A stretch of 64,000 nt of DNA from Promethearchaeota archaeon (GTDB lineage: Archaea; Asgardarchaeota; Lokiarchaeia; Sigyniarchaeales; SOKP01). The notes under the pieces were generated by a model. The model was not told the origin of the DNA and did no database searches. It saw nothing but the letters and a program-made list of their open reading frames with translations. Position numbers and translations under genes: made by a program. Location: NCBI GenBank assembly GCA_048939015.1, contig JBHLPW010000017.1:15584-79583 (forward strand), written 5' to 3'. Shown here piece after piece: positions 1,879 through 14,055 of this stretch (position 1 is the stretch's first letter; each line of letters opens with the position of its first letter).

Positions 1879-2952
1879 CTAATATTCTCTAAAATAAACA
1901 TAATCAGAGAAAATATTAAAAAATACCTTTTCTTTTCTATTCAAATCTGGATAAATATCTCTTAAGTGATTTCTAGATTGTTCTAAAAGGTTTTTCGCTA
2001 AATGTTCAGCAATCATCAGGGCATTAGTTTTCGTAAATATATCTTTCACTTCTTCTACATCATTTTTTGTCAATTTTTCCTTATGATAGATTTCATTTAA
2101 TCTCTTAGATTGTTCTTCATCTGTATTTTGCACAGCTAAGATATAAATAATTTTTTTTTGTTTTCCTTTAATATCATCCTCTAAATCAAGAATGTCATCT
2201 CGAATTGAATGAGCTTGACCAATTTGTAACATCGCTTCGCTCAAAGGTTTAATTTGGTAATGAAGGTTGCCTTTACCCAAAATAGCTCCAATTTTGGTGG
2301 ATTTCTCAAATATTCTTGCTTTTTGATATTCTGCAATGTTTAAATACTGCTCAAGTGACATAGTGATGTTATTATAGTTCATGTATTCTTCCATTAATTG
2401 TCCTTTCATAACGTAATCCATTGCTTCAGTATATTCATTTATCGCTAGCAATTTTAAATGTTCTGGGAATTTTGAAGATTTCAAAATATCTAGACCTAAA
2501 AGATAACCTTGAGATCCTCCTAGAATACTCATATCTCGCCCATATAATCCAATGACAGTATTTTTATTTTGTAAATTTATTCCTTTTAATACCTGATCTA
2601 ATTCGTTTTTTAATTGTTCATGAAAGGTAGGTTTATCTCTTCTAATTTTATCGTCATCCAATAGATCATCATGAATTAAATGTGCGCTGTGTAATAATTC
2701 AACAGCAATTGATACTCTATGGATTTGTTCAATTTGATCTTCTAAATACATGGGATTAACAATACCGGCAAAAGCAGCATTTAATAATACAGGATGAATT
2801 CTTTTTGCTTTATCATTTAAAATAAATTCTTTTAATTGAGTTATAAAATCTCTAAGAAGTAAATCTTTTTCCGTTTTTAATAATTGAGCAAAGTATTTCT
2901 TCAATTCATTGTTAACAACAGTAATTTCATTTTTAAAGAATTCTTCAATCAT
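1879..2952 (-). CDS. trans-Isoprenyl (polyprenyl) diphosphate synthase
   Basis: KRIHP, FARM LIHDDLLDDDKIRR, GQ, SARM RDDILD. Confidence 0.9.
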   Translation of the reverse strand: MIEEFFKNEITVVNNELKKYFAQLLKTEKDLLLRDFITQLKEFILNDKAKRIHPVLLNAAFAGIVNPMYLEDQIEQIHRVSIAVELLHSAHLIHDDLLDDDKIRRDKPTFHEQLKNELDQVLKGINLQNKNTVIGLYGRDMSILGGSQGYLLGLDILKSSKFPEHLKLLAINEYTEAMDYVMKGQLMEEYMNYNNITMSLEQYLNIAEYQKARIFEKSTKIGAILGKGNLHYQIKPLSEAMLQIGQAHSIRDDILDLEDDIKGKQKKIIYILAVQNTDEEQSKRLNEIYHKEKLTKNDVEEVKDIFTKTNALMIAEHLAKNLLEQSRNHLRDIYPDLNRKEKVFFNIFSDYVYFREY

Positions 2953-3055
2953 AAATAATTCACAAAAAGTTCATTTATAATATAAAACATTTATTAATGT
3001 AATTTAATTATATCTAAATTCGATCAATTTTTAACTACTAGGAGAATGTGAGAGA

Positions 3056-3568
3056 ATGAGAATAGCAGTATTAAGTGATACACATGATAATATTCAAAAT
3101 ATAACTAAAGCAGTGTCAATAATCAATAAGAGTAATATAGATGCACTTATTCACTGTGGAGATTATGTCGCTCCATTTGTAAAGCGTTGGTTTGATAAAT
3201 TAGATGATTCGATAAAAAAGAAATTTTATGGTGTTTTTGGAAATAACGATGGAGATAAACTATTTTTAACACAAAATTTAGGTCAAATATGTGAGTTTGC
3301 GGAGAATGGTAATGAAATGATTTTAGAACTGGCAGGAAAACGAATATTTGTATCCCATATGCCTAAACAAAAAACTATTGAAGCTTTAGCTAATTCTGGG
3401 AGTTTTGATATTATTTTAACCGGTCATACTCATAGTTTATCAAATAAAAAACTGGATAACGGTGTTTTAGTTGTGAATCCTGGTGAATTATGTGGGTATT
3501 TAACAGGAAAAGCTACTTTTGTGATTATAGATACTGATAAAATGGAATCTGAAATAATAGAATTGTAG
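3056..3568 (+). CDS. Metallophosphoesterase, YfcE/MJ0936 family
   Basis: SDTHDN, HCGD, GNND, SH, GHTH, NPG motifs. Confidence 0.92.
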   Translation: MRIAVLSDTHDNIQNITKAVSIINKSNIDALIHCGDYVAPFVKRWFDKLDDSIKKKFYGVFGNNDGDKLFLTQNLGQICEFAENGNEMILELAGKRIFVSHMPKQKTIEALANSGSFDIILTGHTHSLSNKKLDNGVLVVNPGELCGYLTGKATFVIIDTDKMESEIIEL

Positions 3569-3694
3569 CATGAAATACACATTTTTTCTTTTTCAATTAT
3601 AACAATAAATTTTATTTATTCATTCATTTATTTAAAGATGTAATAAAATTCATATTGAATCATCTCTTAAATTCACGATTCTAATTTTTCAAAT

Positions 3695-5113
3695 ATGGAT
3701 CTGTCACCTTATATTATATATAAAGACTTCAAAAATGGAAGAATAAATAAAAAAAGAGCTTTAGATCTATTAATTTCATTAATTGAAAACGATCTAGAAC
3801 ATCAAGAAAAAACAAGAATTTTAGCTATTAAATTTTTAGGGCTATTACATCCAAAAGAAAAGCGAATTTTTGATTTTATTGAGAATATATTAATTTCGGA
3901 TTTAAATGAATATATGCGTGAACAAGCCGCTAATATTTTAATTCGTTATTATCCAGATAGAGCTGCAAAACCAATTGCATGGGTGTTAAAAAATGAAAAA
4001 GAGAGTGATTTTACTTGTTCCTTAATAAAATCAATAGAAAAAACTGCAAGTGACTATTTAAAAAGTGTTTTAAAAATCAAGAAATATGTTAATTTCCATG
4101 GAAGTATTATATTTACTTCAGATTCTGAAAAACTCATTAATCTCAATTCTAAGAACATCAATAAAATAGATGAAATCAAAAATTTAGATGGTTTAACTGA
4201 TTTAAAAAAGATTTATCTTAACTATAATCAAATTTCGGAAATCAAAGGTTTGGAGAAAAATACTAACTTACGATCTTTACACTTACAAGGAAATAAAATT
4301 ATAAAAATAGGTGATCTATCTCATTTAAAAAAACTTGAATATTTGTATTTGAACAATAATGAGATCTCAAAAATAGAAGGAATTACTGATCTTAAAAACC
4401 TGAAATCTTTCATAATATATGATAATTATATCTCAAAAATTGAAAACTTAGAAAATCTGTCCAACTTAGAAGTTTTAAATCTAAGAAATAATCATATTTC
4501 TGAAATAAATGGCCTTGAAAGCTTATCCAATTTAAAAAGATTAGATCTTAGTAATAATAAATTATTAGAGATTAAAGGAGTAGAAAATCTAACTAAATTA
4601 GAATTTCTAGATTTAAGTCATAATGAAATAAATAAAGTAAAGGGATTAGAGAATCTACGAAAATTGAAATTTCTAGATCTTCGAAATAATAAAATCCAAA
4701 ATATAAAGGGATTGGAAGAATTAAAAAAATTACAGCACTTATACATTGGATTTAATCCAATTATCGATGATATAAATATAGATCTTTTGAACCATATTAA
4801 AGTACTTGATATCAAAAATACCGAAGGATTATTTATTCCAGAGAAAATATGGAATGTATATCCAGATGAGTCAAAATTGAGAGAAGAATTGTTTTTGAAT
4901 CAAAATAAGATAAGAGATATCAAATTTATATACGAAAAATTTGATTCTCAGTCTATTCTTAGAGAGATGAGTAAAAAGAGAAATCCATTAGAATTTTTTA
5001 CAAATTCTTCTTGGATGGTTATCTGGAAAAATAATGAATATGAATTATTTCGATTAAGCATTCTTGGAGACATTAAATGGATTCAAAGAAGTAAAAAAGT
5101 TCATATTCACTAA
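3695..5113 (+). CDS. HEAT-like N-terminus plus SDS22-type leucine-rich repeat protein
   Basis: About 9-10 repeats of 22 aa (LxxLxxLxLxxNxIxxIxGLE); N-terminal helical repeats (RILAIKFLG, REQAANIL). Confidence 0.88.
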   Translation: MDLSPYIIYKDFKNGRINKKRALDLLISLIENDLEHQEKTRILAIKFLGLLHPKEKRIFDFIENILISDLNEYMREQAANILIRYYPDRAAKPIAWVLKNEKESDFTCSLIKSIEKTASDYLKSVLKIKKYVNFHGSIIFTSDSEKLINLNSKNINKIDEIKNLDGLTDLKKIYLNYNQISEIKGLEKNTNLRSLHLQGNKIIKIGDLSHLKKLEYLYLNNNEISKIEGITDLKNLKSFIIYDNYISKIENLENLSNLEVLNLRNNHISEINGLESLSNLKRLDLSNNKLLEIKGVENLTKLEFLDLSHNEINKVKGLENLRKLKFLDLRNNKIQNIKGLEELKKLQHLYIGFNPIIDDINIDLLNHIKVLDIKNTEGLFIPEKIWNVYPDESKLREELFLNQNKIRDIKFIYEKFDSQSILREMSKKRNPLEFFTNSSWMVIWKNNEYELFRLSILGDIKWIQRSKKVHIH

Positions 5114-5194
5114 TTTTTATTAATTTAGGATTTAAATTTCAATAATGTCAAACTTTTCCTCTACACTTTTATTTTATCTTTATTTTTTAATATT

Positions 5195-6409
5195 ATGTCA
5201 TTACCATTAGAAGGGATAGTTGTATTAGATCTAACCAGAATGCTACCAGGACCATATTGTTCTATGATACTCTCTGATCTTGGGGCAACTGTTATTAAAG
5301 TTGAAGATCCATATTATCCTTATGGACATCCACCTCCTTTCTTTCAAAAAGGGAGATATCGTGAAAGTGCATTTAATTTTATCCTCAATAGAAATAAACA
5401 ATCAATAACATTAAACTTAAAAAAAGAAAAAGCAAGAGAAATTTTTTATCAATTAGTTAAAAAAGCTGATGTAGTTCTAGATACATTTCGACCCAAAGTA
5501 ACATCCAAATTGAAAATTGATTATAATACATTGGCCTCAATAAATCCATCAATAATTTGTTGTTCATTAACAGGATATGGCCAATATGGCCCATATGAAC
5601 AGATAGCAGGTCATGATCTTAATTATATTGGTATTTGTGGTATTCTAGAATTGAATAAAGAACGAGTAGTTTATGGTGATAATACTAAGGAGAGAAAACC
5701 TATAAATCCAGGTGTTCAAGTTGCTGATATTGGAGGCGGGTTAGTATCAGCCATAGGAATTTTAGGTGCAGTTATTGAAAGAGAAAAAAATCCTGAAAGA
5801 AAAGGTCAATTTATTGATATTTCTATGACAGATTGTGTATTTTCTTTCATGCCTCTTGTTGCAGCATATCATTTTTCTCAAAATTTAAATGAGGGTGTTG
5901 AAACACAAAATCCCTTACACGGTGATTTTCCTTTTTATAATGTATATAAAACAAAAGATAACAAGTTTTTATCTGTGGGGATAGTTGAAGTTAAATTTTG
6001 GCGAGAATTCTGCGAAGGTCTTAATCGTGAGGATTTAAAACCAGCTCAATTTGTTAAAGGACAAGAAAGAGAAGAATTGTTCAAAGAAATACAAACTGAA
6101 TTATTAAAGAAAACTCAAAATGAGTGGATGAGTATTTTTAAGAACTTAGATGCTTGTGTTATGCCCGTGAATACTTTTGCTGATGCATGTAAGGATCCTC
6201 AAATTAAAGCTCGAGATATGGTCATAGATATAGAACATCCCAAATTTGGTAATGTCAAAAATGTGGCTTCACCTATTAAATATTCACGAACTCCTTTAAA
6301 TATTCGAAGTCTTGCTCCTAAAATGGGACAAGAAACAGAAGATATACTAAAAAGCCTTGGGTATTTAGATGAGGATATTCGTGGGTTTAAAAAAAAAGGA
6401 GTTATTTAA
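5195..6409 (+). CDS. Family III CoA-transferase (CaiB/BaiF)
   Basis: LEGIVVLDLTRMLPGP, NRNKQS, GYGQYGP, GHDLNY, catalytic Asp in VADIGGG. Confidence 0.93.
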   Translation: MSLPLEGIVVLDLTRMLPGPYCSMILSDLGATVIKVEDPYYPYGHPPPFFQKGRYRESAFNFILNRNKQSITLNLKKEKAREIFYQLVKKADVVLDTFRPKVTSKLKIDYNTLASINPSIICCSLTGYGQYGPYEQIAGHDLNYIGICGILELNKERVVYGDNTKERKPINPGVQVADIGGGLVSAIGILGAVIEREKNPERKGQFIDISMTDCVFSFMPLVAAYHFSQNLNEGVETQNPLHGDFPFYNVYKTKDNKFLSVGIVEVKFWREFCEGLNREDLKPAQFVKGQEREELFKEIQTELLKKTQNEWMSIFKNLDACVMPVNTFADACKDPQIKARDMVIDIEHPKFGNVKNVASPIKYSRTPLNIRSLAPKMGQETEDILKSLGYLDEDIRGFKKKGVI

Positions 6410-6416
6410 AATATCA

Positions 6417-6809
6417 TCAAAATATTTGGAATTCAATTATTAATATCAACGCTGCGATTAAAAGAGAAAAAATACTAAACACCATTAATGTTATAAACAT
6501 AGGCCAATCTTTTAACTGCCCATAAAATCCTGCGGCATTTATAGTCGAATATATTGCCATTCCAATTGCTATGAAGAAAATTGCTAAACCCCATGGTTGA
6601 TTCATTAAAAATCCAATCCCACCGATTATTAAAACAACTGCTGTAATAAATTCAGCTGCTAAGTGAAAAAATATTTGAGTCGGTTTAGTTTTAAGTTCTG
6701 GTACTTCTCTTTTAAATAATAAAAGAAACCACATACCTAGCATTGTGATTCCTATTAATATTGTATAGACTGAAGCAATTAATTCAAGAACTATATTATT
6801 CACCTTCAA
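6417..6809 (-). CDS. Small 4-TM membrane protein, unknown function
   Basis: Four hydrophobic segments. Start uncertain (TTG 6809, GTG 6803 or ATA 6794 after an AAGGTGA SD-like motif). Confidence 0.75.
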   Translation of the reverse strand: MKVNNIVLELIASVYTILIGITMLGMWFLLLFKREVPELKTKPTQIFFHLAAEFITAVVLIIGGIGFLMNQPWGLAIFFIAIGMAIYSTINAAGFYGQLKDWPMFITLMVFSIFSLLIAALILIIEFQIF

Positions 6810-7053
6810 TGAGTTATTTGAATCAAATTTATTAATATTTATATTTACTTAAATTTTCTGTAAAAAAAATATGATTAATATTGTCTAGTAATGTATAAAT
6901 TATAATTTCGTTGAGTTTTAGAATTTAAACAAATCCTTTACAGCATGAGATTCAGGTTTATTAGTTTTTTATTTATAATTTTATTCTTAAGTTTTAAAGA
7001 TATTAGAAAATTAATGATAATAATATAATTTTACAAATTTTGCTATAATCTCT

Positions 7054-7548
7054 ATGAATGTTGATAATTACTTATATGAAACGATATTAGAATCAGGAAT
7101 AGATTTGATTTTATCATTACCATGTATCTTATTAAAGGGGCTTCTAGAAATAATTGATGAAAAAGGTGAAATTCAAAAAATCCCTATAACTCGCGAAGAA
7201 GAAGGAATAGGAATTGCAGCAGGTGCTTATTTAGGCGGAAGGACTCCTGCACTTTTGATACAAAATTCAGGTTTAGGCAATTCGGTAAACGCTATAAAAT
7301 CACTTCTTGAATTATATGAAATTCCCATTGTATTTATAATGAGTCATAGAGGTGTTGAAGGAGAGAAGATAATGGCACAAATACCAATGGGACAACTAAC
7401 TCCACGGTTATTAGACCTATTAAATATTAAAAAGTACATTATAGATTCATTAGAAAAGGTAATTGAAATTAAAAATGCTGTTGAATTTAGTAAGAGTTCT
7501 AATAAATCAGTTGGAATTCTTTTAAAAAGAGAATTATGGAGGAAATGA
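7054..7548 (+). CDS. comD: Sulfopyruvate decarboxylase alpha subunit
   Basis: LPC, TREEEGIGIAAGAYLGG, QNSGLGN, SHRG..GE; TPP-enzyme PYR domain. Confidence 0.85.
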   Translation: MNVDNYLYETILESGIDLILSLPCILLKGLLEIIDEKGEIQKIPITREEEGIGIAAGAYLGGRTPALLIQNSGLGNSVNAIKSLLELYEIPIVFIMSHRGVEGEKIMAQIPMGQLTPRLLDLLNIKKYIIDSLEKVIEIKNAVEFSKSSNKSVGILLKRELWRK

Positions 7549-7549
7549 G

Positions 7550-8110
7550 ATGAAAAGATTTGATGCTATTAAAAAAATTGTAGAATCATTGAACAATGAA
7601 TTGATTGTTTGTAATCTCGGTGCACCCTGCCGTGAATTATTTAGTATCTCAGATCGCCTCTCAAACTTTTATATGTTAGGATCTATGGGACTAGCTAGCT
7701 CGATAGCTCTAGGTGTTGCTCTCACTCAACCTAATAAAATAGTATGGTGTATAGATGGAGATGGTTCCATATTAATGAATCTTGGGAGTTTAAGTACAAT
7801 TGCTAATAATCAGCCAAATAATCTAACTCTGATAATTATTGATAATTCAACGTATGGATCTACTGGAAATCAGAGGACTTATACAAGTGGTAAGACAAAT
7901 TTAAAAATCATTGCTGAAGGTGCGGGATTTAAATCGATTACAATTATTAAAAAAGAAGGAGATATTGTTCATACACTTAAAAACTTAGGATTTGGATGTC
8001 ATTTTGTTCTTATTAAAACTCAACCAGGTAATGCTCTAGTAGATAATGTCCCATTACTCCCTAAAGACATAAAAGCACGATTTATGAGATTATTAACAAG
8101 AAAAGATTAA
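7550..8110 (+). CDS. comE: Sulfopyruvate decarboxylase beta subunit
   Basis: MKRFDAI, NFYMLGSMGLASSIALG, TPP motif DGDGS...IDN, YGSTGNQ; 1 nt after the comD stop. Confidence 0.85.
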   Translation: MKRFDAIKKIVESLNNELIVCNLGAPCRELFSISDRLSNFYMLGSMGLASSIALGVALTQPNKIVWCIDGDGSILMNLGSLSTIANNQPNNLTLIIIDNSTYGSTGNQRTYTSGKTNLKIIAEGAGFKSITIIKKEGDIVHTLKNLGFGCHFVLIKTQPGNALVDNVPLLPKDIKARFMRLLTRKD

Positions 8111-8225
8111 ATTGGAACCCTCGCAAGTTGCTAAATACCTTAATTAGAAAGTCTATACATAATTTTAATTAGGTATGCTATTATTATTTCTTTAGACCTA
8201 GTTTAAAAATTAGAGAAATATCAAT

Positions 8226-9836
8226 ATGTCAGAGAAATTCGAAAAATCCAATAATAATAGAAATTCAAATAATGAAAAAACGGATACTAATTTCGAGAAT
8301 AATAATATTAAAGAAGAGAAGCAAATTGAAAAAATAAGTAAGCCAGTAGTTATTAGAGCAGACGCTTATAAGACAATAATTCTGTATGCAAGCAGATATG
8401 CAAATAAATCAATACCTTCAGAACAATGGAAGGAAATTTATGGTATTTTAATTGGTAAATCTGATGAAGATTTAGTATATGTAGAACGAGCAGAGGCTTT
8501 AACGTTTGGTCATGCTACAGATGTGCAATTAGATGAAAGACATTACGGTTTCATTGAGAATATTCAAGAAACCCTTGATAAAGAAGGAAAAGGATATTAT
8601 ATGGTAGGATGGTTCCATAGTCATCCTGGATTAAACTTATTCTTCTCTTACATAGATTTAATTAATCAACTTGGTTTTCAGCAAAATAACGACGATTTTT
8701 GTGGGTTGGTATTCGATCACACATTATTAGGAAAGAAAAAACAAGATATTGTAAAAAATGAAGATGGTTCTGAATATACAATGACTAAATATGATACTGG
8801 TTTTGAAATTTATCGGATTACTGATGTTAATATGGATGTTAATGATGCCCAGTTTGATTCAAATTATTATAAAATAGATTATGTTGTAGATGGATTAAAT
8901 AAATTTTTCTTTGCGAATGTGCTATCAGAACTCTCGGCATTAGTTACTGAAGGAAAACCTTTACAATCTGCTTATGGAGAAAAAGCAACACCACCAATAA
9001 ATACCATAGCATCATCAGAACAAGAAACTAAGCAGCCTTCTTACTTTGATAATGAACTTAGTGGTATTGCAACTAAAGATTTATTAACTGAAATTCCCAT
9101 GACAGAAGATATTGCGTTCGATGTGGATGATTTTTTTTATGGTGAAATAGATGCGAAGAAAAAACAGAAAGATGTAAAAGTAAGAGAAATCGCAGAGCAA
9201 TTGATTTATGAAGGAAACCAGGCATTTGATCGTAAAGATTCTTTTACTGGAATTGAAAAATTTAGACAAGGTATAAATAAATATAAGGAGATCAAAGATT
9301 TTGATAGAGTTTTAGATTTATTGAGAATTGTTTCGCATAATTGCATTTCAAATGACCATCTGATTTTAGCTGATGAATTTACTGATGATCTATATAAACT
9401 CGCAAAGAAGCGAAATCACAATTTTTACTTAGGAATAGCAAATTATATTAAGGGATATTTGTTATTGAAGCGAGCAGATAATGAAGTTTTAGAGGAAGCG
9501 CTAAATAGAATTCAAGATGCTGCTATAATTTTTGAAAAAGAAGGAGATTTTGCAGGCGCAGGAATGTGCTTCAATAAAATTGGTACAATATATCAATCAA
9601 GACTTCATAAACTAGAAAATGCATGTCTATTTTATAGAGCTGCAATTGAGAATTTTAATAAAGCTATTGTAAAGATGCATCCATTACGAACATCCTTTTG
9701 GAATAAAGCAGAATTACTTATCCAAAAAGTAATGGAATTACGAGATATTGTGGATGAATTATTGCCAAATCTCGAAAATGTTGAATTGAAAAATAAAATT
9801 ATTAAAGACTTGAAAGATATTCAGTATAATTTTTAG
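8226..9836 (+). CDS. MPN+/JAMM metalloprotease domain fused to C-terminal TPR/SNAP-like helical repeats
   Basis: EIYGILIG...VGWFHSHPGLNLFFSYID gives the full E...HxH-x7-S-x2-D JAMM motif. C-terminal helical repeats such as AAIIFEKEGDFAGAGMCFNKIG. Confidence 0.85.
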   Translation: MSEKFEKSNNNRNSNNEKTDTNFENNNIKEEKQIEKISKPVVIRADAYKTIILYASRYANKSIPSEQWKEIYGILIGKSDEDLVYVERAEALTFGHATDVQLDERHYGFIENIQETLDKEGKGYYMVGWFHSHPGLNLFFSYIDLINQLGFQQNNDDFCGLVFDHTLLGKKKQDIVKNEDGSEYTMTKYDTGFEIYRITDVNMDVNDAQFDSNYYKIDYVVDGLNKFFFANVLSELSALVTEGKPLQSAYGEKATPPINTIASSEQETKQPSYFDNELSGIATKDLLTEIPMTEDIAFDVDDFFYGEIDAKKKQKDVKVREIAEQLIYEGNQAFDRKDSFTGIEKFRQGINKYKEIKDFDRVLDLLRIVSHNCISNDHLILADEFTDDLYKLAKKRNHNFYLGIANYIKGYLLLKRADNEVLEEALNRIQDAAIIFEKEGDFAGAGMCFNKIGTIYQSRLHKLENACLFYRAAIENFNKAIVKMHPLRTSFWNKAELLIQKVMELRDIVDELLPNLENVELKNKIIKDLKDIQYNF

Positions 9837-9940
9837 TATTAATCTTAGATTACATAATATCATTATCTTTTTTTTGAAAATACAAAAAAAATATATTTTA
9901 AGAATAATTATCTAATATACTCCTTTTAGTGAAATTTTTC

Positions 9941-10648
9941 ATGCCAAGACGTAAACAAAAAATTAAATATTCTAGGAAAATTGCCTGTAAACATTTAGAA
10001 CCAAAAGGTAATATAAGCACTAGTCTTCAAGCATTATGTTATTGTCCTGCGAGAGATTTAACTTTAGGGACTCGTGCATATGTTTGCCAAGTGTGTGCTA
10101 TATATGAGCCAGTCAAAAATAATAACCGATTTTCCGATATATATGAAGAAAGTAAAAAAATAGCAGAGAAGAAAATTAGAGAAAAGCAAATAAAATTGGA
10201 AGAACTTGAGCTCGAAGAAATAATGTCTGATGAGGAAATTGATTTATCAATTGATGAATTTGAAGAAGAGGAAGAAGAAGCTCCTTTAAAATTTGAAAAG
10301 AGAAAAGCTGGAAAAGCTGACATGGAAGATTCGGACATTTCTGATATAACAGAGTGCCCATTCTGCGGTGAATTCTTCGAAGACTTAGCTTCACATATAC
10401 AGAGCTGTGAATTTGCCCCAGATGACGCGAGTATTGAAGATATTATCCCTTCAAAACCAAAAAAGAAAAAGAAAAAAACAAGTACAAATACTGAAAAAAG
10501 TGATGGAAAGACTACAGAAAAACAGAAATGCCCATATTGTGGAAAGGAATTTGTTAGACTTGGACGTCACTTGAATTCATGTTCTAAAAAGCCTGCTGAT
10601 GCTGATGAAGAAGATGATGAAGACGAAGATGAAGAAGATGAGGAATAA
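9941..10648 (+). CDS. Cys/His zinc-finger protein with two C2HC fingers and acidic/basic low-complexity tracts
   Basis: CPFC-x9-H-x3-C and CPYC-x9-H-x3-C, an N-terminal Cys cluster, poly-E/D tracts and PKKKKKK. ATG at 9941 preferred over GTG 9929. Confidence 0.78.
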   Translation: MPRRKQKIKYSRKIACKHLEPKGNISTSLQALCYCPARDLTLGTRAYVCQVCAIYEPVKNNNRFSDIYEESKKIAEKKIREKQIKLEELELEEIMSDEEIDLSIDEFEEEEEEAPLKFEKRKAGKADMEDSDISDITECPFCGEFFEDLASHIQSCEFAPDDASIEDIIPSKPKKKKKKTSTNTEKSDGKTTEKQKCPYCGKEFVRLGRHLNSCSKKPADADEEDDEDEDEEDEE

Positions 10649-10689
10649 CTTGTAAAAAATATAAGAAAATATCCTTCTCAAAAGATAAT

Positions 10690-11613
10690 ATGCATCGCAA
10701 AGAAGAAATCTATTACTGTCAGCCCGTTTTTAGACCACCCAGTGAAGCATATTCTTTATTAATTCAATTGACAGAAGGTTGCACATATAAATGCGATTTT
10801 TGCATGTCAAATCTCCGTAAACAATTTCTAGTTAGAGAGGTAGATCTTATAAAAAAGGATTTAGACATTGCTAGAAAAAAATATGGTCCAAACGTTAGAA
10901 AAATTTTTTTTTTAAATGGGAATGCAATGGTTGCTCCTACTGAAAAATTACTAGATGTAACTCGATATGCATATAAACTTTTTCCAAATTTAGAAAGGTG
11001 TGGTGTATATGCTCACTCTAGGGATGTATTAAAAAAAACAGATGAGCAACTAAAATCACTAAGTGAGGCAGGTCTTAAAATTGCTTATGTTGGTTTTGAA
11101 TCTGGTTCTGACCATTTACTTGAATTAGTACATAAACATGTAAGTAAAGCAGAGCACATAAAAGCGTCTAAAAAGTTAATGAAAGCGGGGATAACTCTAT
11201 CAGCGACATTAATAAATGGTCTTGGAGGTGGTAATAACCCAGAAATGTCAAAAGAACATGCGATAGAATCAGCTGATTTGGTTAATAAAATCTGTCCCGA
11301 TGATGATAGAATTTGGTATATTGCATTCCTAACACTCATGATACCGTCAGGAACTGAAATATTTAGAAAAAAGATAAAGGGAGAATTCCTAGAAATGATT
11401 CCATCAGAAATATTGCAAGAATTAAAGTATTTCATTAATAAAATCGAATTCCATAATAAGAAAGCAAATTGCATATTCCGAAGTAATCACGCATCAAATT
11501 ATTTGCCAATAAAAGGTATTTTAGACAGAGAAAGAGAGGAAATTTTAAGTACCATAAATTATGGTTTGACTCATAAAAATATTTTACGACCAGAATTTTA
11601 TCGGGGGCTTTAA
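10690..11613 (+). CDS. Radical SAM protein
   Basis: RPPSEA...GCTYKCDFC (CxxxCxxC), GFESG, FRSNHASNY. Confidence 0.9.
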   Translation: MHRKEEIYYCQPVFRPPSEAYSLLIQLTEGCTYKCDFCMSNLRKQFLVREVDLIKKDLDIARKKYGPNVRKIFFLNGNAMVAPTEKLLDVTRYAYKLFPNLERCGVYAHSRDVLKKTDEQLKSLSEAGLKIAYVGFESGSDHLLELVHKHVSKAEHIKASKKLMKAGITLSATLINGLGGGNNPEMSKEHAIESADLVNKICPDDDRIWYIAFLTLMIPSGTEIFRKKIKGEFLEMIPSEILQELKYFINKIEFHNKKANCIFRSNHASNYLPIKGILDREREEILSTINYGLTHKNILRPEFYRGL

Positions 11614-11649
11614 AAAAGAAACACTACTAAGTTTCTTTCTTCAAAATCT

Positions 11650-12390
11650 TTATCTTTTAAAAATTATTTCTTGAGTTTTGGGTAGATAATCTTGTACGGG
11701 ACCTTTTGGTTGCTTTTTGATAATATTAATGAAATCACTTAGTTGTTCTTGATTCATAGCCATTTTTTTAGAAAGATTAGAAAGTGTAAGTTTGTTAAAA
11801 TCTTTTGAAAATTCATATAATTTATGACTTATTAGGTTTTGATAAGTTAAAGAGATTAACATTTTTAAATTTGGGAAATTCTCACCTCTTATATCTCTTA
11901 CAAATTCAAAAATTTTATCGGAGGCATCATAATAATTCAAAATTTTATAACAGCTTAATATTTCATACATTTTCTTAATATATTTGAAATATTTAGTGAT
12001 TTTAATACTAAGATCTTGGAGATGATAACGATCGAGATTGTGATCCACATCATTTTTTAGCATTGCGAGTAATTTTGAAAAGTTTTCCAAATTAGTTTCA
12101 TTAAGTTTTTCTCTTAAAAGATTATCAAAACGTCGCTTATAAATCATCCTATGTCCATTTAATTCCGATTGGATTTGTTCGCTTAAGTTATAAAAATCAA
12201 GAAGTTCTTTTTCAATATTAAAAGATTCTTTATGTTCTTGAAGCAATATTAATGCAGATCTTACCTTTTCTAAAGCCGAATTATAATCTCCATTCTTTAC
12301 CTTCTTTAGAATGATAGATTTATAATAATTCAATTCTTCTATAAGATTCTTTTTGTTTTTGAAATTTTCAACCTTAGAATTAAAACTCAT
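11650..12390 (-). CDS. Helical-repeat protein with probable C-terminal PCI (winged-helix) domain
   Basis: C-terminus LYEFSKDFNKLTLSNLSKKMAMNQEQLSDFI...KTQEIIF matches the PCI pattern by eye; alpha-helical N-terminus. Confidence 0.6.
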   Translation of the reverse strand: MSFNSKVENFKNKKNLIEELNYYKSIILKKVKNGDYNSALEKVRSALILLQEHKESFNIEKELLDFYNLSEQIQSELNGHRMIYKRRFDNLLREKLNETNLENFSKLLAMLKNDVDHNLDRYHLQDLSIKITKYFKYIKKMYEILSCYKILNYYDASDKIFEFVRDIRGENFPNLKMLISLTYQNLISHKLYEFSKDFNKLTLSNLSKKMAMNQEQLSDFINIIKKQPKGPVQDYLPKTQEIIFKR

Positions 12391-12569
12391 ACGCTCTCTA
12401 TAAAGTTTCTATTTTAATATATTCTTATTACATCTAAATAGAATAGATTCAAAATTTAAATTTAATATTATGCTTTTAATAAAACAAATTTCTCAAAATT
12501 CCTACAAGTATGTAGGGGCTAACACTACCGACGTTAATCGTGAATTTAATCTTTTAAATAGAAAAATAT

Positions 12570-12968
12570 CTAATTACGAGCTCCACACAAAGAGCAAACT
12601 TCTGCATCACCAATAGGGTTTCCACAGTCTTTACATCTTCTGACGGCATCAATAATATCCCTTTCTTCATCTAAACCTATTTTACCATCTAATTCTTCGA
12701 TCTTTCCAATTCCTTTTGAGAATAGGGAGCCGGGTCTATCACCTGGCCAAATAATATTAACAAAAATCCCAGAAACTACCAAAATTACACAAATTATAAT
12801 GAATATTGTTAAATTATTTCCGAGATTTTGTTGTAAAAAATCAATTGTAGCTGTAATCCAAGAGATCATCCAGGAACCAAGAGATGAGATTAATTGTTTA
12901 AAAAAAATTAGGATAATACCAAAAATGTCAGCTAGTGCTTCTAAAAATCCTATTGTTTGTACTATCAT
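12570..12968 (-). CDS. Membrane protein with C-terminal zinc ribbon
   Basis: Two hydrophobic segments; CKDC...CSLC at the C-terminus; GAGGTGA SD. Confidence 0.8.
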   Translation of the reverse strand: MIVQTIGFLEALADIFGIILIFFKQLISSLGSWMISWITATIDFLQQNLGNNLTIFIIICVILVVSGIFVNIIWPGDRPGSLFSKGIGKIEELDGKIGLDEERDIIDAVRRCKDCGNPIGDAEVCSLCGARN

Positions 12969-12978
12969 TTTTTCACCT

Positions 12979-13461
12979 CTATAATGCTTTCATACGATTT
13001 TCTCGAAGTTTTTTTCTATTTACTATAAAATCAACAATATCATACACTTTTAGAATAATTGAGAAAAAATATACTCCTAAATATATTAAGATCATCTGTT
13101 GAAGATTTAGAGAGAAATAACCAATATTAACAATTACAAAATTAATAGTAGTTGCCCCAGAGAATTTATAACTCCAAATATATAAACTGTTTACAAGAAC
13201 TTGAATCAGAGCCAACACTCCCCTTCTGATTGATTTTTTTGGTGATGAATAGTTAAAAAATGCACAACTACTAATAATCAATCCTAAAGCAGTTACCCAG
13301 AAAATAATATTTTGATATTGTTGTTGTTCTAATTGTATTGAAAAACCTTGAACATTCATATCACGGACCCATGTATATGTTAAGACGGGAATGACTATTG
13401 TGATAACTACATAAATAGAAGCATAAATAAAACCTCTTACCATATTTCTAACAGCACCCAT
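12979..13461 (-). CDS. 4-TM membrane protein, unknown function
   Basis: Four TM segments. ATG at 13461 follows an AAGGTGA SD; the ORF-track GTG is part of that SD. Confidence 0.8.
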   Translation of the reverse strand: MGAVRNMVRGFIYASIYVVITIVIPVLTYTWVRDMNVQGFSIQLEQQQYQNIIFWVTALGLIISSCAFFNYSSPKKSIRRGVLALIQVLVNSLYIWSYKFSGATTINFVIVNIGYFSLNLQQMILIYLGVYFFSIILKVYDIVDFIVNRKKLRENRMKAL

Positions 13462-13473
13462 TGATATCACCTT

Positions 13474-14055
13474 TTATGGTAATCCTCCGACGAGTAAATC
13501 AAGTATTCCTATTGTGATGGAATGTAATCCTAAGGTATAATCTAGATTAACCGTTAAATTTGCATAAAACAAAATAGCAGGAGGTCCTCTAAACCAATTT
13601 ACTTCTGTAGTGAAATTAGGAAAGTTTCCAATATTAAAATCACTAAAAAGTCCTGTTAAATTAAAATATCCTGTAGTACCCTTTTTAACTATACCAAAAG
13701 TTTGGGATTTCGAAAGAATGAGTACTTTTCTTGTTTGATTTATTCCTGGTGATGGATAATCAATATGACTATAATTTATTGCGAGATCAACATTTAAGTC
13801 AAGATTTTCCAAATCAAAATAACCAGCATTAGTGAAATTGAATGGTAATGTGAAGTTAATGTTATCAATTACATACGTAGCATTATTCATATCAATGTTT
13901 AACTCAACTTTATTAGGATCTACCCCTATATTTTTTGGACTGGCAAGGATAATGAATGCTGAAAATCCCCCTAGAAACGCTACAACAGTAACGGAGATAG
14001 TTAGAAATAAAATAAAAATTCGGAATATTAAGCGAACAATTCTGGCTGGTCTCAT
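13474..14055 (-). CDS. Membrane-anchored extracellular beta-sandwich (LEA_2/Ig-like) protein
   Basis: N-terminal basic plus TM segment, beta-rich ectodomain (FTLPFNFTNAGYFDL), several NxS/T sequons. Confidence 0.7.
   Translation of the reverse strand: MRPARIVRLIFRIFILFLTISVTVVAFLGGFSAFIILASPKNIGVDPNKVELNIDMNNATYVIDNINFTLPFNFTNAGYFDLENLDLNVDLAINYSHIDYPSPGINQTRKVLILSKSQTFGIVKKGTTGYFNLTGLFSDFNIGNFPNFTTEVNWFRGPPAILFYANLTVNLDYTLGLHSITIGILDLLVGGLP

Follow-up and report, generated by a model that had tools for sequence, protein, structure and literature searches.

The locus and its genes

The stretch of DNA analyzed here, called the window throughout, comprises 64,000 nucleotides (nt) of contig C87 (JBHLPW010000017.1, positions 15,584 to 79,583) from a Promethearchaeota archaeon of the Lokiarchaeia, whose assembly amounts to 4.86 Mb in 125 contigs (GCA_048939015.1). 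Its G+C content is ~29%, and among the sequencing runs listed, the stretch is contained in sediment metagenome DNA runs only and in none of RNA. The subject of this study is a block of four genes at positions 8226 to 12390 that encode a protein with an MPN+ (JAMM) domain and tetratricopeptide repeats (MPN+-TPR protein), a zinc-finger (ZnF) protein, a radical SAM (rSAM) enzyme, and a small protein with a PCI-type fold (PCI-fold protein). An earlier note, made from the letters of the sequence alone, had combined the first, second, and fourth of these into a possible minimal lid/signalosome-like module. All open reading frames (ORFs) claimed in that note are found where it had placed them, and it was also right in that the rSAM gene lies between the ZnF and the PCI-like gene and that the latter is convergent. 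The features of the four genes, given in residues or amino acids (aa) and, for one of them, with the predicted local distance difference test score (pLDDT) of its model, are as follows.

8226 to 9836, plus strand: MPN+-TPR protein, 536 aa, with a disordered tail (residues 1-37), the MPN+ domain (~38-245), a linker (254-311), and a TPR solenoid (312-536)
8337 to 8960, plus strand: catalytic MPN+/JAMM domain, residues 38-245, with E70, H131, H133, S141, and D144
8985 to 9158, plus strand: disordered acidic linker, residues 254-311, with a short conserved motif at ~287-291
9159 to 9833, plus strand: TPR solenoid of ten helices, residues 312-536, pLDDT ~90-96
9941 to 10648, plus strand: ZnF protein; a GTG at 9929 opens the ORF (239 aa), and the ATG at 9941 is the likely start (235 aa)
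9986 to 10096, plus strand: N-terminal Cys cluster of the ZnF protein, with C20, C37, C39, C53, and C56
10355 to 10408, plus strand: C2HC finger 1, with C143, C146, H156, and C160
10529 to 10582, plus strand: C2HC finger 2, with C201, C204, H214, and C218
10690 to 11613, plus strand: rSAM enzyme, 307 aa, core domain alone (PF04055, E 5e-16)
11650 to 12390, minus strand: PCI-fold protein, 246 aa, with a three-helix N-terminal unit (residues 11-78) and a PCI-type module (79-246)
11653 to 12156, minus strand: PCI-type module, residues 79-246, consisting of four helices and a winged helix (177-246)

Residue numbers of the ZnF protein are counted from the GTG at 9929. Between the MPN+-TPR and ZnF genes, a T-run and an A/T-rich, TATA-like stretch can be read in the sequence. 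The rSAM and PCI-fold genes are convergent, with their ends 36 nt apart, and the PCI-fold gene has an A/T-rich upstream region of 180 nt of its own (12391-12569). Relatives were surveyed in 151 genomes of the order and in 301 genomes of the phylum; families and genera are labeled f and g, respectively, with f1 being the family of the window.

An MPN+ domain and a TPR solenoid on one chain

Intact and with its zinc site complete, the MPN+ domain belongs to the eukaryote-like Rpn11/CSN5/BRCC36 type. Pfam JAB (PF01398) matches residues 39-153 with an E value of 6.2e-13 and 49 bits (cut-off, 22.5), and the JAMM motif, E70...H131-S-H133-P-x6-S141-x2-D144, reads exactly as given in the earlier note. 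E70, H131, H133, S141, and D144 are invariant in an alignment of 16 orthologs that reaches down to 26% identity, and since this holds for all five JAMM residues, the zinc site is under selection. The best sequence relative in the PDB (phmmer) is CsRpn11 (6fjv, E 1.1e-11), followed by CSN5 (1.7e-9) and Rpn11 (6.7e-7), with BRCC36 also near; the match to AMSH is marginal (E 0.2-0.3). Structural comparison gave the same picture. The Foldseek check that had been proposed for the MPN+ and PCI-like proteins placed CSN5, Rpn11, and BRCC36 on top for the MPN+ part (E ~6e-9 to 1e-8) and, as described below, returned PCI proteins for the other. In VIA alignments, the MPN+ part reached a Z score of 17.5 with Rpn11 (4o8x_B; root mean square deviation [rmsd], 3.7; 161 residues aligned), 16.5 with CsRpn11 (6fju_B; rmsd, 2.9; 150 aligned), and 13.6 with Sst2.

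The AlphaFold2 model of the whole MPN+-TPR protein has a mean pLDDT of 74, with values below 50 in the linker (residues 254-311). By its model, the C-terminal arm is an ordinary TPR domain of the peptide-binding type and not specifically an alpha-SNAP, because a range of TPR proteins scores alike in VIA alignments: Pins (4a1s_A, Z 19.4), LGN (3ro3_A, Z 18.0; rmsd, 2.9; 159 aligned), Sec17 (9cru_G, Z 16.4), and the TPRs of kinesin light chain (KLC; Z 15.2-15.5), with NASP and Rap/PlcR in the same range. Hence, of the "TPR/SNAP-like repeats" read earlier in this part of the protein, the TPR half stands, with Z 18-19.4 to LGN and Pins. The SNAP half does not: PF14938 matches residues 421-480 only, with 21.4 bits at a cut-off of 25 (E 1.9e-4), and Sec17 does not rank above the other TPR proteins.

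The linker between the two domains is variable except for a short motif at residues 287-291 (9084-9098), in which P291 is invariant among the 16 orthologs and L287 and I290 are nearly so. This motif may be a docking or an autoinhibitory peptide.

The PCI-fold protein

The description of the protein at 11650-12390 as a helical protein that ends in a PCI-like winged helix is borne out by its predicted structure. AlphaFold2, supplied with 22 orthologs as the alignment, gave a model with a mean pLDDT of 91.3, in which seven helices precede a winged helix, formed by a strand at 200-202, two helices at 203-210 and 214-225, and two strands at 232-236 and 241-244. The protein terminates with residue 246, 2 residues past the last strand (~5 in orthologs). 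All Foldseek matches listed for this model (~45 rows, ranks 1-49) are PCI proteins, namely, CSN1-4, lid subunits, eIF3a/c/e, Rpn12, and PCID2, with probabilities of up to 1.0 and E values of 2.9e-3 to 9e-2, none of them below 1e-3. Upon realignment of the Foldseek matches with VIA, Rpn6 (5mpb_Q, chain residues 211-401) scored highest, with a Z of 10.9 (rmsd, 4.1; 162 aligned), followed by PSMD11 (Z 10.1), CSN2 and CSN4 (Z 9.8), and eIF3c (Z 8.5), all over residues 79-246, where a Z of ~10 is within reach of chance for helical repeats; the rmsd was 4.1-5.2 for Rpn6, PSMD11, and CSN2 and 6.5 for CSN4, with 149-162 residues aligned. A profile of the family, run against the PDB sequences, retrieved the PCI winged helix of eIF3c first (E 0.008, residues 176-246 against 777-846). 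Pfam PCI (PF01399) stays below its threshold: it gave 13.5 bits (E 0.33; cut-off, 22) for the window copy in one scan, no match for the same protein in a second scan, and subthreshold matches in 5 of the 22 orthologs (best E 0.003).

No single one of these scores is significant. Since four independent views (Foldseek, VIA, profile against the PDB, and Pfam) agree, a PCI-type architecture is the clear best reading of the modeled protein, which may be homologous to the eukaryotic families or convergent with them. PCI-like winged helices have been noted in Asgard proteins before (PMC10936438). The family itself is narrow: when 1.84 billion representative proteins were searched with its profile, there were 37 matches, and all of these came from the family itself.

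Other assignments were considered and discarded. For the N-terminal three-helix unit (residues 11-78), an MIT domain gave a Z of ~8-9.4, which designed three-helix bundles equal, and TPR units were no better. A Pfam match to ParD_antitoxin over residues 21-60, found in 21 of the 22 orthologs (best E 2.5e-6), falls on a helical region of a different fold and is regarded as spurious. Most of the other "PCI" matches in the genome are generic winged-helix proteins, for example, of the Lrp/AsnC-like type.

The zinc-finger protein and the radical SAM enzyme

The ZnF protein starts with the N-terminal Cys cluster and continues with an acidic, low-complexity middle part, a Lys patch, the two C2HC fingers, and an acidic tail. 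Both of the C-x2-C-x9-H-x3-C fingers announced earlier are present (C143-C160 and C201-C218), and a start at the ATG at 9941 fits the orthologs and the ESM Atlas record. Across families, the Cys cluster is the best-conserved part of the protein, with invariant columns in the alignment (A3), and outside f1, conservation is confined to this cluster and finger 2. Finger 2 is invariant in all orthologs aligned; finger 1 is found in f1 only and is absent from the f2 and f3 orthologs. The N-terminal domain is single copy and occurs in 65 of 68 f1 genomes, in 7 of 7 f2 genomes, and in no other of the 301 phylum genomes.

What do the fingers bind? No Pfam or NCBIfam model scored above its cut-off for this protein, and there was no UBZ family among the 23 weak Pfam matches at E values of up to 1. 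In the ESM Atlas cluster of the protein, 91% of the members carry PF28519 (MTNAP1_ZnF), an assignment taken from the Atlas annotation since the model is not in the Pfam copy searched. By sequence, the fingers match the C2HC type of MTNAP1/C17orf80, whose finger has the same C-x2-C-x9-H-x3-C spacing and for which the ligand was left open, DNA or protein (PMC10445727). The absence of a UBZ match and the likeness to the Atlas family and C17orf80 instead make the label "ubiquitin reader," which the fingers had received earlier, a guess from the C2HC class that does not follow from the sequence.

Two further stretches of the ZnF protein caught our attention. An acidic stretch with a single Phe (residues ~106-114, 10243-10270) is conserved, and a run of Lys residues occupies positions 175-183 (10454-10477). 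It is imaginable, as a speculation, that the acidic Phe motif corresponds to the aromatic-acidic peptides of KLC-type TPRs, which are structural neighbors of the arm of the protease.

The rSAM family is found in 154 of the 301 phylum genomes. Its nearest NCBIfam models are of the lipid or phosphonate type (PhpK, HpnJ, and Tes), all far below their cut-offs, and no relative of the protein was found in the PDB at E values of up to 0.01.

Conservation and loss of genes within the block

In f1, the gene order is MPN+-TPR, ZnF, rSAM, the convergent PCI-fold gene, and three genes for transmembrane (TM) proteins. This order was found in g1, g13, g14, g18, g19, and g20 and is kept even where the PCI-fold protein has fallen to 27% identity. 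The flanks, with a CoA-transferase, a pair of genes for a thiamine pyrophosphate (TPP) enzyme, and a P-type ATPase, are conserved in f1 as well, and therefore, synteny at the family level alone says little on function. Among the 301 phylum genomes, the TPR part is present in 64 of 68 f1 genomes and in 2 of 7 f2 genomes; elsewhere, only four weak partial matches in longer ORFs were obtained. Matches over the whole MPN+-TPR protein add genus g10 of f2 and genus g3 of f3.

The PCI-fold gene has a much patchier distribution. Among the 151 genomes of the order, it is confined to f1, where it was found in 50 of 52 genomes of g1, all 5 of g13, 35 of 42 of g14, and also in g18, g19, and g20. No copy was found in g15 (0 of 7), g16 (0 of 8), f3, or f4, and g12, g17, and f2 gave weak partial matches to the winged helix in longer ORFs only. 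The loci of g12, g15, and g16 that were read have the MPN+-TPR, ZnF, rSAM, and three TM genes intact and lack the PCI-fold gene; in its position, g15 and g16 carry a flavoprotein gene alone, and g12 carries nothing or another gene. In a maximum-likelihood tree of the MPN+-TPR protein, rooted by f2, the first split within f1 separates the PCI-positive g13 from all other genera (92/88). Of the PCI-negative genera, g12 and g15 group together (99/99), and g16 stands beside the PCI-positive g19 (97/95). Because these supported branches set the PCI-negative genera in at least two places, the PCI-fold gene has changed at least twice, and the most parsimonious account has the gene gained once, at the base of f1, and then lost repeatedly (at least two events). 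The loss had no visible effect on the branch lengths of the MPN+-TPR protein. The survey of synteny among relatives gave a divided answer: where the PCI-fold gene exists, it is always in the block, but it was lost at least twice from loci that kept MPN+-TPR.

The flavoprotein gene just mentioned encodes an FMN-reductase/flavodoxin-like protein with a Cys motif (PF03358, E ~1e-19 to 1e-23 in those copies that were scanned) and lies between the PCI-fold (or rSAM) gene and the TM genes in most genera, for example, at 9492-10145 in locus L084, 9158-9790 in L089, 3736-4365 in L062, and 7153-7776 in L094. It is plausible that the flavoprotein serves as an electron donor to the rSAM enzyme. The window has lost this gene, and 180 nt are left in its place at 12391-12569. 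In another genome of the same genus (G017), the rSAM gene is split, with its first 60 codons beside the ZnF gene (contig C71, L032 3916-4107) and its last 68 beside the PCI-fold gene (contig C78, L050 2264-2482); the gene was broken up by a rearrangement or an insertion, or else the assembly is interrupted there.

Outside f1, the block is rearranged and partly dissolved. MPN+-TPR, ZnF, and rSAM are together in g5 and g10 of f2, with the rSAM gene inverted, and g5 also keeps the TM genes. The same three genes are kept in g3 of f3, where ZnF and rSAM are both inverted, so that ZnF is on the other strand from MPN+-TPR, and one ORF lies between these two. In g2 and g8 of f2, ZnF and rSAM are divergent neighbors with no MPN+-TPR gene beside them (L104 8288-10383, L105 200-2110, L106 242-2162, and L107 427-2330). 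In g2, this pair is located between a gene for a Metallophos_2 phosphoesterase and a gene for a polyprenyl synthetase, which follows rSAM. Three genomes of g2 were searched, of which one is a single contig; no MPN+-TPR gene was found in them, and the matches were to short JAB paralogs only. Since ZnF and rSAM are kept together in g2 and g8 without MPN+-TPR alongside, they are the most persistent pair of the block; judged by gene content, the MPN+-TPR and PCI-fold genes are each dispensable parts of it.

Neighboring genes and other JAB loci of the genome

Next in the window come three genes for membrane proteins, which, like the PCI-fold gene, are on the minus strand; none of the three gave a significant match to a Pfam family.

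12570 to 12968, minus strand: protein with TM segment and C-terminal four-Cys zinc ribbon
12979 to 13470, minus strand: multipass TM protein
13474 to 14055, minus strand: protein with a single TM segment and a beta-rich domain, with dense N-x-S/T sequons

The genome contains seven JAB matches. One of them adjoins ubiquitin-like and E2 genes on contig C5, and another lies beside an E2-like gene on C32. Ubiquitin-like proteins of the genome are encoded on contigs C5, C35, C116, and C46. Near the block of the window, no gene for an MPN- partner, ubiquitin, E1, or E2 was found; those known sit with other JAB paralogs on other contigs. A cluster on contig C85 (L100, G000:C85:26000-40000) holds three JAB/MPN paralogs of 318, 232, and 457 aa. 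Its ORFs are at 2568-4772 and 4897-5853 on the minus strand and at 6094-6780, 6998-7696, 7762-8547, and 8548-9921 on the plus strand, and they also encode an AAA+ (ChlI/MoxR-like) protein with a VWA domain, a zinc-ribbon protein, and a coiled-coil protein. Judging from paired matches in relatives, two or more of these JAB paralogs seem to remain next to each other there. This cluster looks like a better place than the locus of the window for seeking MPN-MPN pairs or an assembly that resembles a proteasome cap. PADLOC gave no signal for a defense system beyond generic JAB and weak pVip matches.

Interpretation of the locus

In sum, we favor, with a confidence slightly above even, the view that the locus encodes a stand-alone, TPR-targeted isopeptidase of the Rpn11/CSN5 type, set in a conserved Lokiarchaeia block in which the C2HC protein, tied mainly to the rSAM gene, and the family-specific PCI-fold protein are optional neighbors. 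The MPN+ domain is tethered to the TPR solenoid via the disordered linker of ~60 residues, and in our model, the protein would act alone as an isopeptidase on ubiquitin or ubiquitin-like conjugates. The TPR arm would bind an extended peptide of a substrate or an adaptor and bring it to the active site, and the working logic would thus be that of AMSH, with a helical targeting domain and an MPN+ domain, and not that of Rpn11, which is embedded in the lid. Neither the ZnF nor the PCI-fold protein would be an obligate subunit; the most that either would be to the protease is an optional adaptor. A lid-like machine is disfavored because the genes of the block have been gained and lost independently in relatives. 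Two observations on gene order weigh against our view. In all f1 loci read, and likewise in g5 and g10 of f2, the MPN+-TPR and ZnF genes lie side by side and point in the same direction. Furthermore, every PCI-fold gene found is at this locus, and it occurs in no genome that lacks MPN+-TPR, a distribution that a facultative partner would show as well.

Indeed, a facultative MPN-PCI pairing is the alternative that survives best, even if we consider it unlikely. In the genera that carry it, the PCI-fold protein, and perhaps the acidic motif of the ZnF protein, would dock on the TPR arm and regulate or target the protease, as a lineage-specific pair in analogy to the lid and the COP9 signalosome and not as their ancestor. 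The PCI-type fold is real, the gene keeps its place in the block next to MPN+-TPR down to the 27% identity mentioned above, and TPR arms bind partners, with the peptide-binding TPRs of LGN and KLC among the structural neighbors of this one. However, the two genes are convergent and the PCI-fold gene has its own A/T-rich upstream gap, the losses passed without a visible change in the MPN+-TPR branches, and the PCI-fold family is very narrow. A prediction of the complex of MPN+-TPR (residues 36-536) and the PCI-fold protein gave 0.00 twice (mark, 0.32), a result that counts neither for nor against the pairing.

A second alternative puts the weight on the other pair of genes: ZnF and rSAM would be the true functional unit, with the ZnF protein as a regulator, partner, or substrate of the rSAM enzyme, possibly in isoprenoid-lipid or membrane biology, and MPN+-TPR and the PCI-fold protein would be mere neighbors. 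ZnF and rSAM are adjacent in f1, in f3, and in g5, g10, g2, and g8 of f2, in three orientations and in some cases without MPN+-TPR beside them. The polyprenyl synthetase gene that follows rSAM in g2, the lipid-type models nearest to the rSAM enzyme, and the FMN-reductase/flavodoxin-like and three membrane-protein genes that accompany the block are all consistent with such a role. On the other hand, the rSAM family is far wider than ZnF, which is found in 73 of the 301 phylum genomes, all NCBIfam matches are far below cut-off, and any substrate is conjectural. We rate this explanation as quite unlikely and place it behind the facultative pairing.

That the locus is an ancestral minimal lid or signalosome, as the earlier note had suggested, is extremely improbable; in this reading, the isopeptidase, the ubiquitin reader, and the PCI scaffold would be homologous forerunners of the PCI complexes of eukaryotes. 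In its favor, a Rpn11/CSN5-type MPN+ domain and a PCI-type fold lie within 4 kb of each other in an Asgard genome. Against it, only part of one family has the PCI-fold gene, which disappeared at least twice from a block that otherwise persisted. In two other genera, MPN+-TPR does not adjoin the ZnF-rSAM pair, and the searched genomes of one of them (g2) yielded no such gene at all. The single PCI protein has no C-terminal bundle helix, no MPN- and no ubiquitin, E1, or E2 gene adjoins the block, the fingers match no UBZ model, and the profile search gave no significant link to eukaryotic PCI families.

A stand-alone isopeptidase of this kind would matter in its own right. Even without a link to the PCI-fold protein, the fusion of MPN+ and TPR is a putative deubiquitinase architecture that is undescribed as far as the literature searched shows (no account of such a fusion in an Asgard archaeon came up), and it would add to the diversified ubiquitin system of Lokiarchaeia, of which the seven JAB paralogs of this genome are a sign. 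The bolder proposal is that in one family of Lokiarchaeia, the TPR arm of an Rpn11/CSN5-type MPN+ protease binds the small protein with the PCI fold and perhaps the C2HC protein as well, which would make it an archaeal MPN-PCI pairing. We hold this to be doubtful, somewhat more so than either of the first two alternatives. If true, it would mean that the partnership can arise or exist outside the eukaryotes, and two or three proteins would provide a model for how PCI scaffolds gain control of MPN+ enzymes. As of 2018, MPN-PCI complexes were stated as not known in archaea (PMC6043591). The locus would be a small, expressible system in which to ask whether MPN-PCI contacts are older than the eukaryotes or have originated in parallel.

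Comparison with known systems

Three eukaryotic complexes, the proteasome lid, the COP9 signalosome, and eIF3, are assemblies of MPN and PCI subunits. In the lid and the COP9 signalosome, the winged helices of six PCI subunits form a horseshoe, the subunits share a C-terminal helix bundle, and MPN+ is paired with MPN-. The locus departs from this plan, since its only PCI-fold protein has no C-terminal helix in the AlphaFold2 model, its only MPN protein runs from the MPN domain into a disordered linker and TPR, and no MPN- neighbor accompanies the latter; the other MPN paralogs are on other contigs. Rpn11 and CSN5 work within PCI complexes and with an MPN- partner, whereas the MPN+ domain of the window has no MPN- neighbor. 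With Rpn6/PSMD11, CSN2, CSN4, and eIF3c, the PCI-fold protein shares the succession of a helical-repeat subdomain and a winged helix. It differs from them in that it is much shorter (246 aa), falls below the Pfam threshold, belongs to one family only, lacks a C-terminal helix after the winged helix, and has no sister PCI subunits at the locus.

The fingers of the ZnF protein share the C2HC class with the UBZ4 fingers of Rad18 and WRNIP1. In UBZ4 fingers, C and H are spaced farther apart, and an Asp makes contact with ubiquitin; this Asp presumably is not conserved in the ZnF protein of the window, and we use both points as a lead only. Closer in spacing is C17orf80, a vertebrate mitochondrial nucleoid protein, which has a single finger, whereas the protein of the window has two.

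With CsRpn11 of Candidatus Caldiarchaeum subterraneum (6fjv/6fju), the protease shares the MPN+ fold and a complete JAMM site. CsRpn11 itself is a short, stand-alone protein whose gene adjoins a ubiquitin/E1/E2/E3 operon (PMC6043591), whereas the domain of the window is fused to TPR and has no ubiquitin-system neighbors. The nearest functional parallel may be AMSH, AMSH-LP, and Sst2. Proteins of the AMSH type are targeted by an N-terminal MIT domain, whereas the arm of the window's protein is a C-terminal TPR and no ESCRT genes are nearby; what the two would have in common is the working logic of one chain that unites a catalytically competent MPN+ domain with a helical domain for protein binding and targeting.

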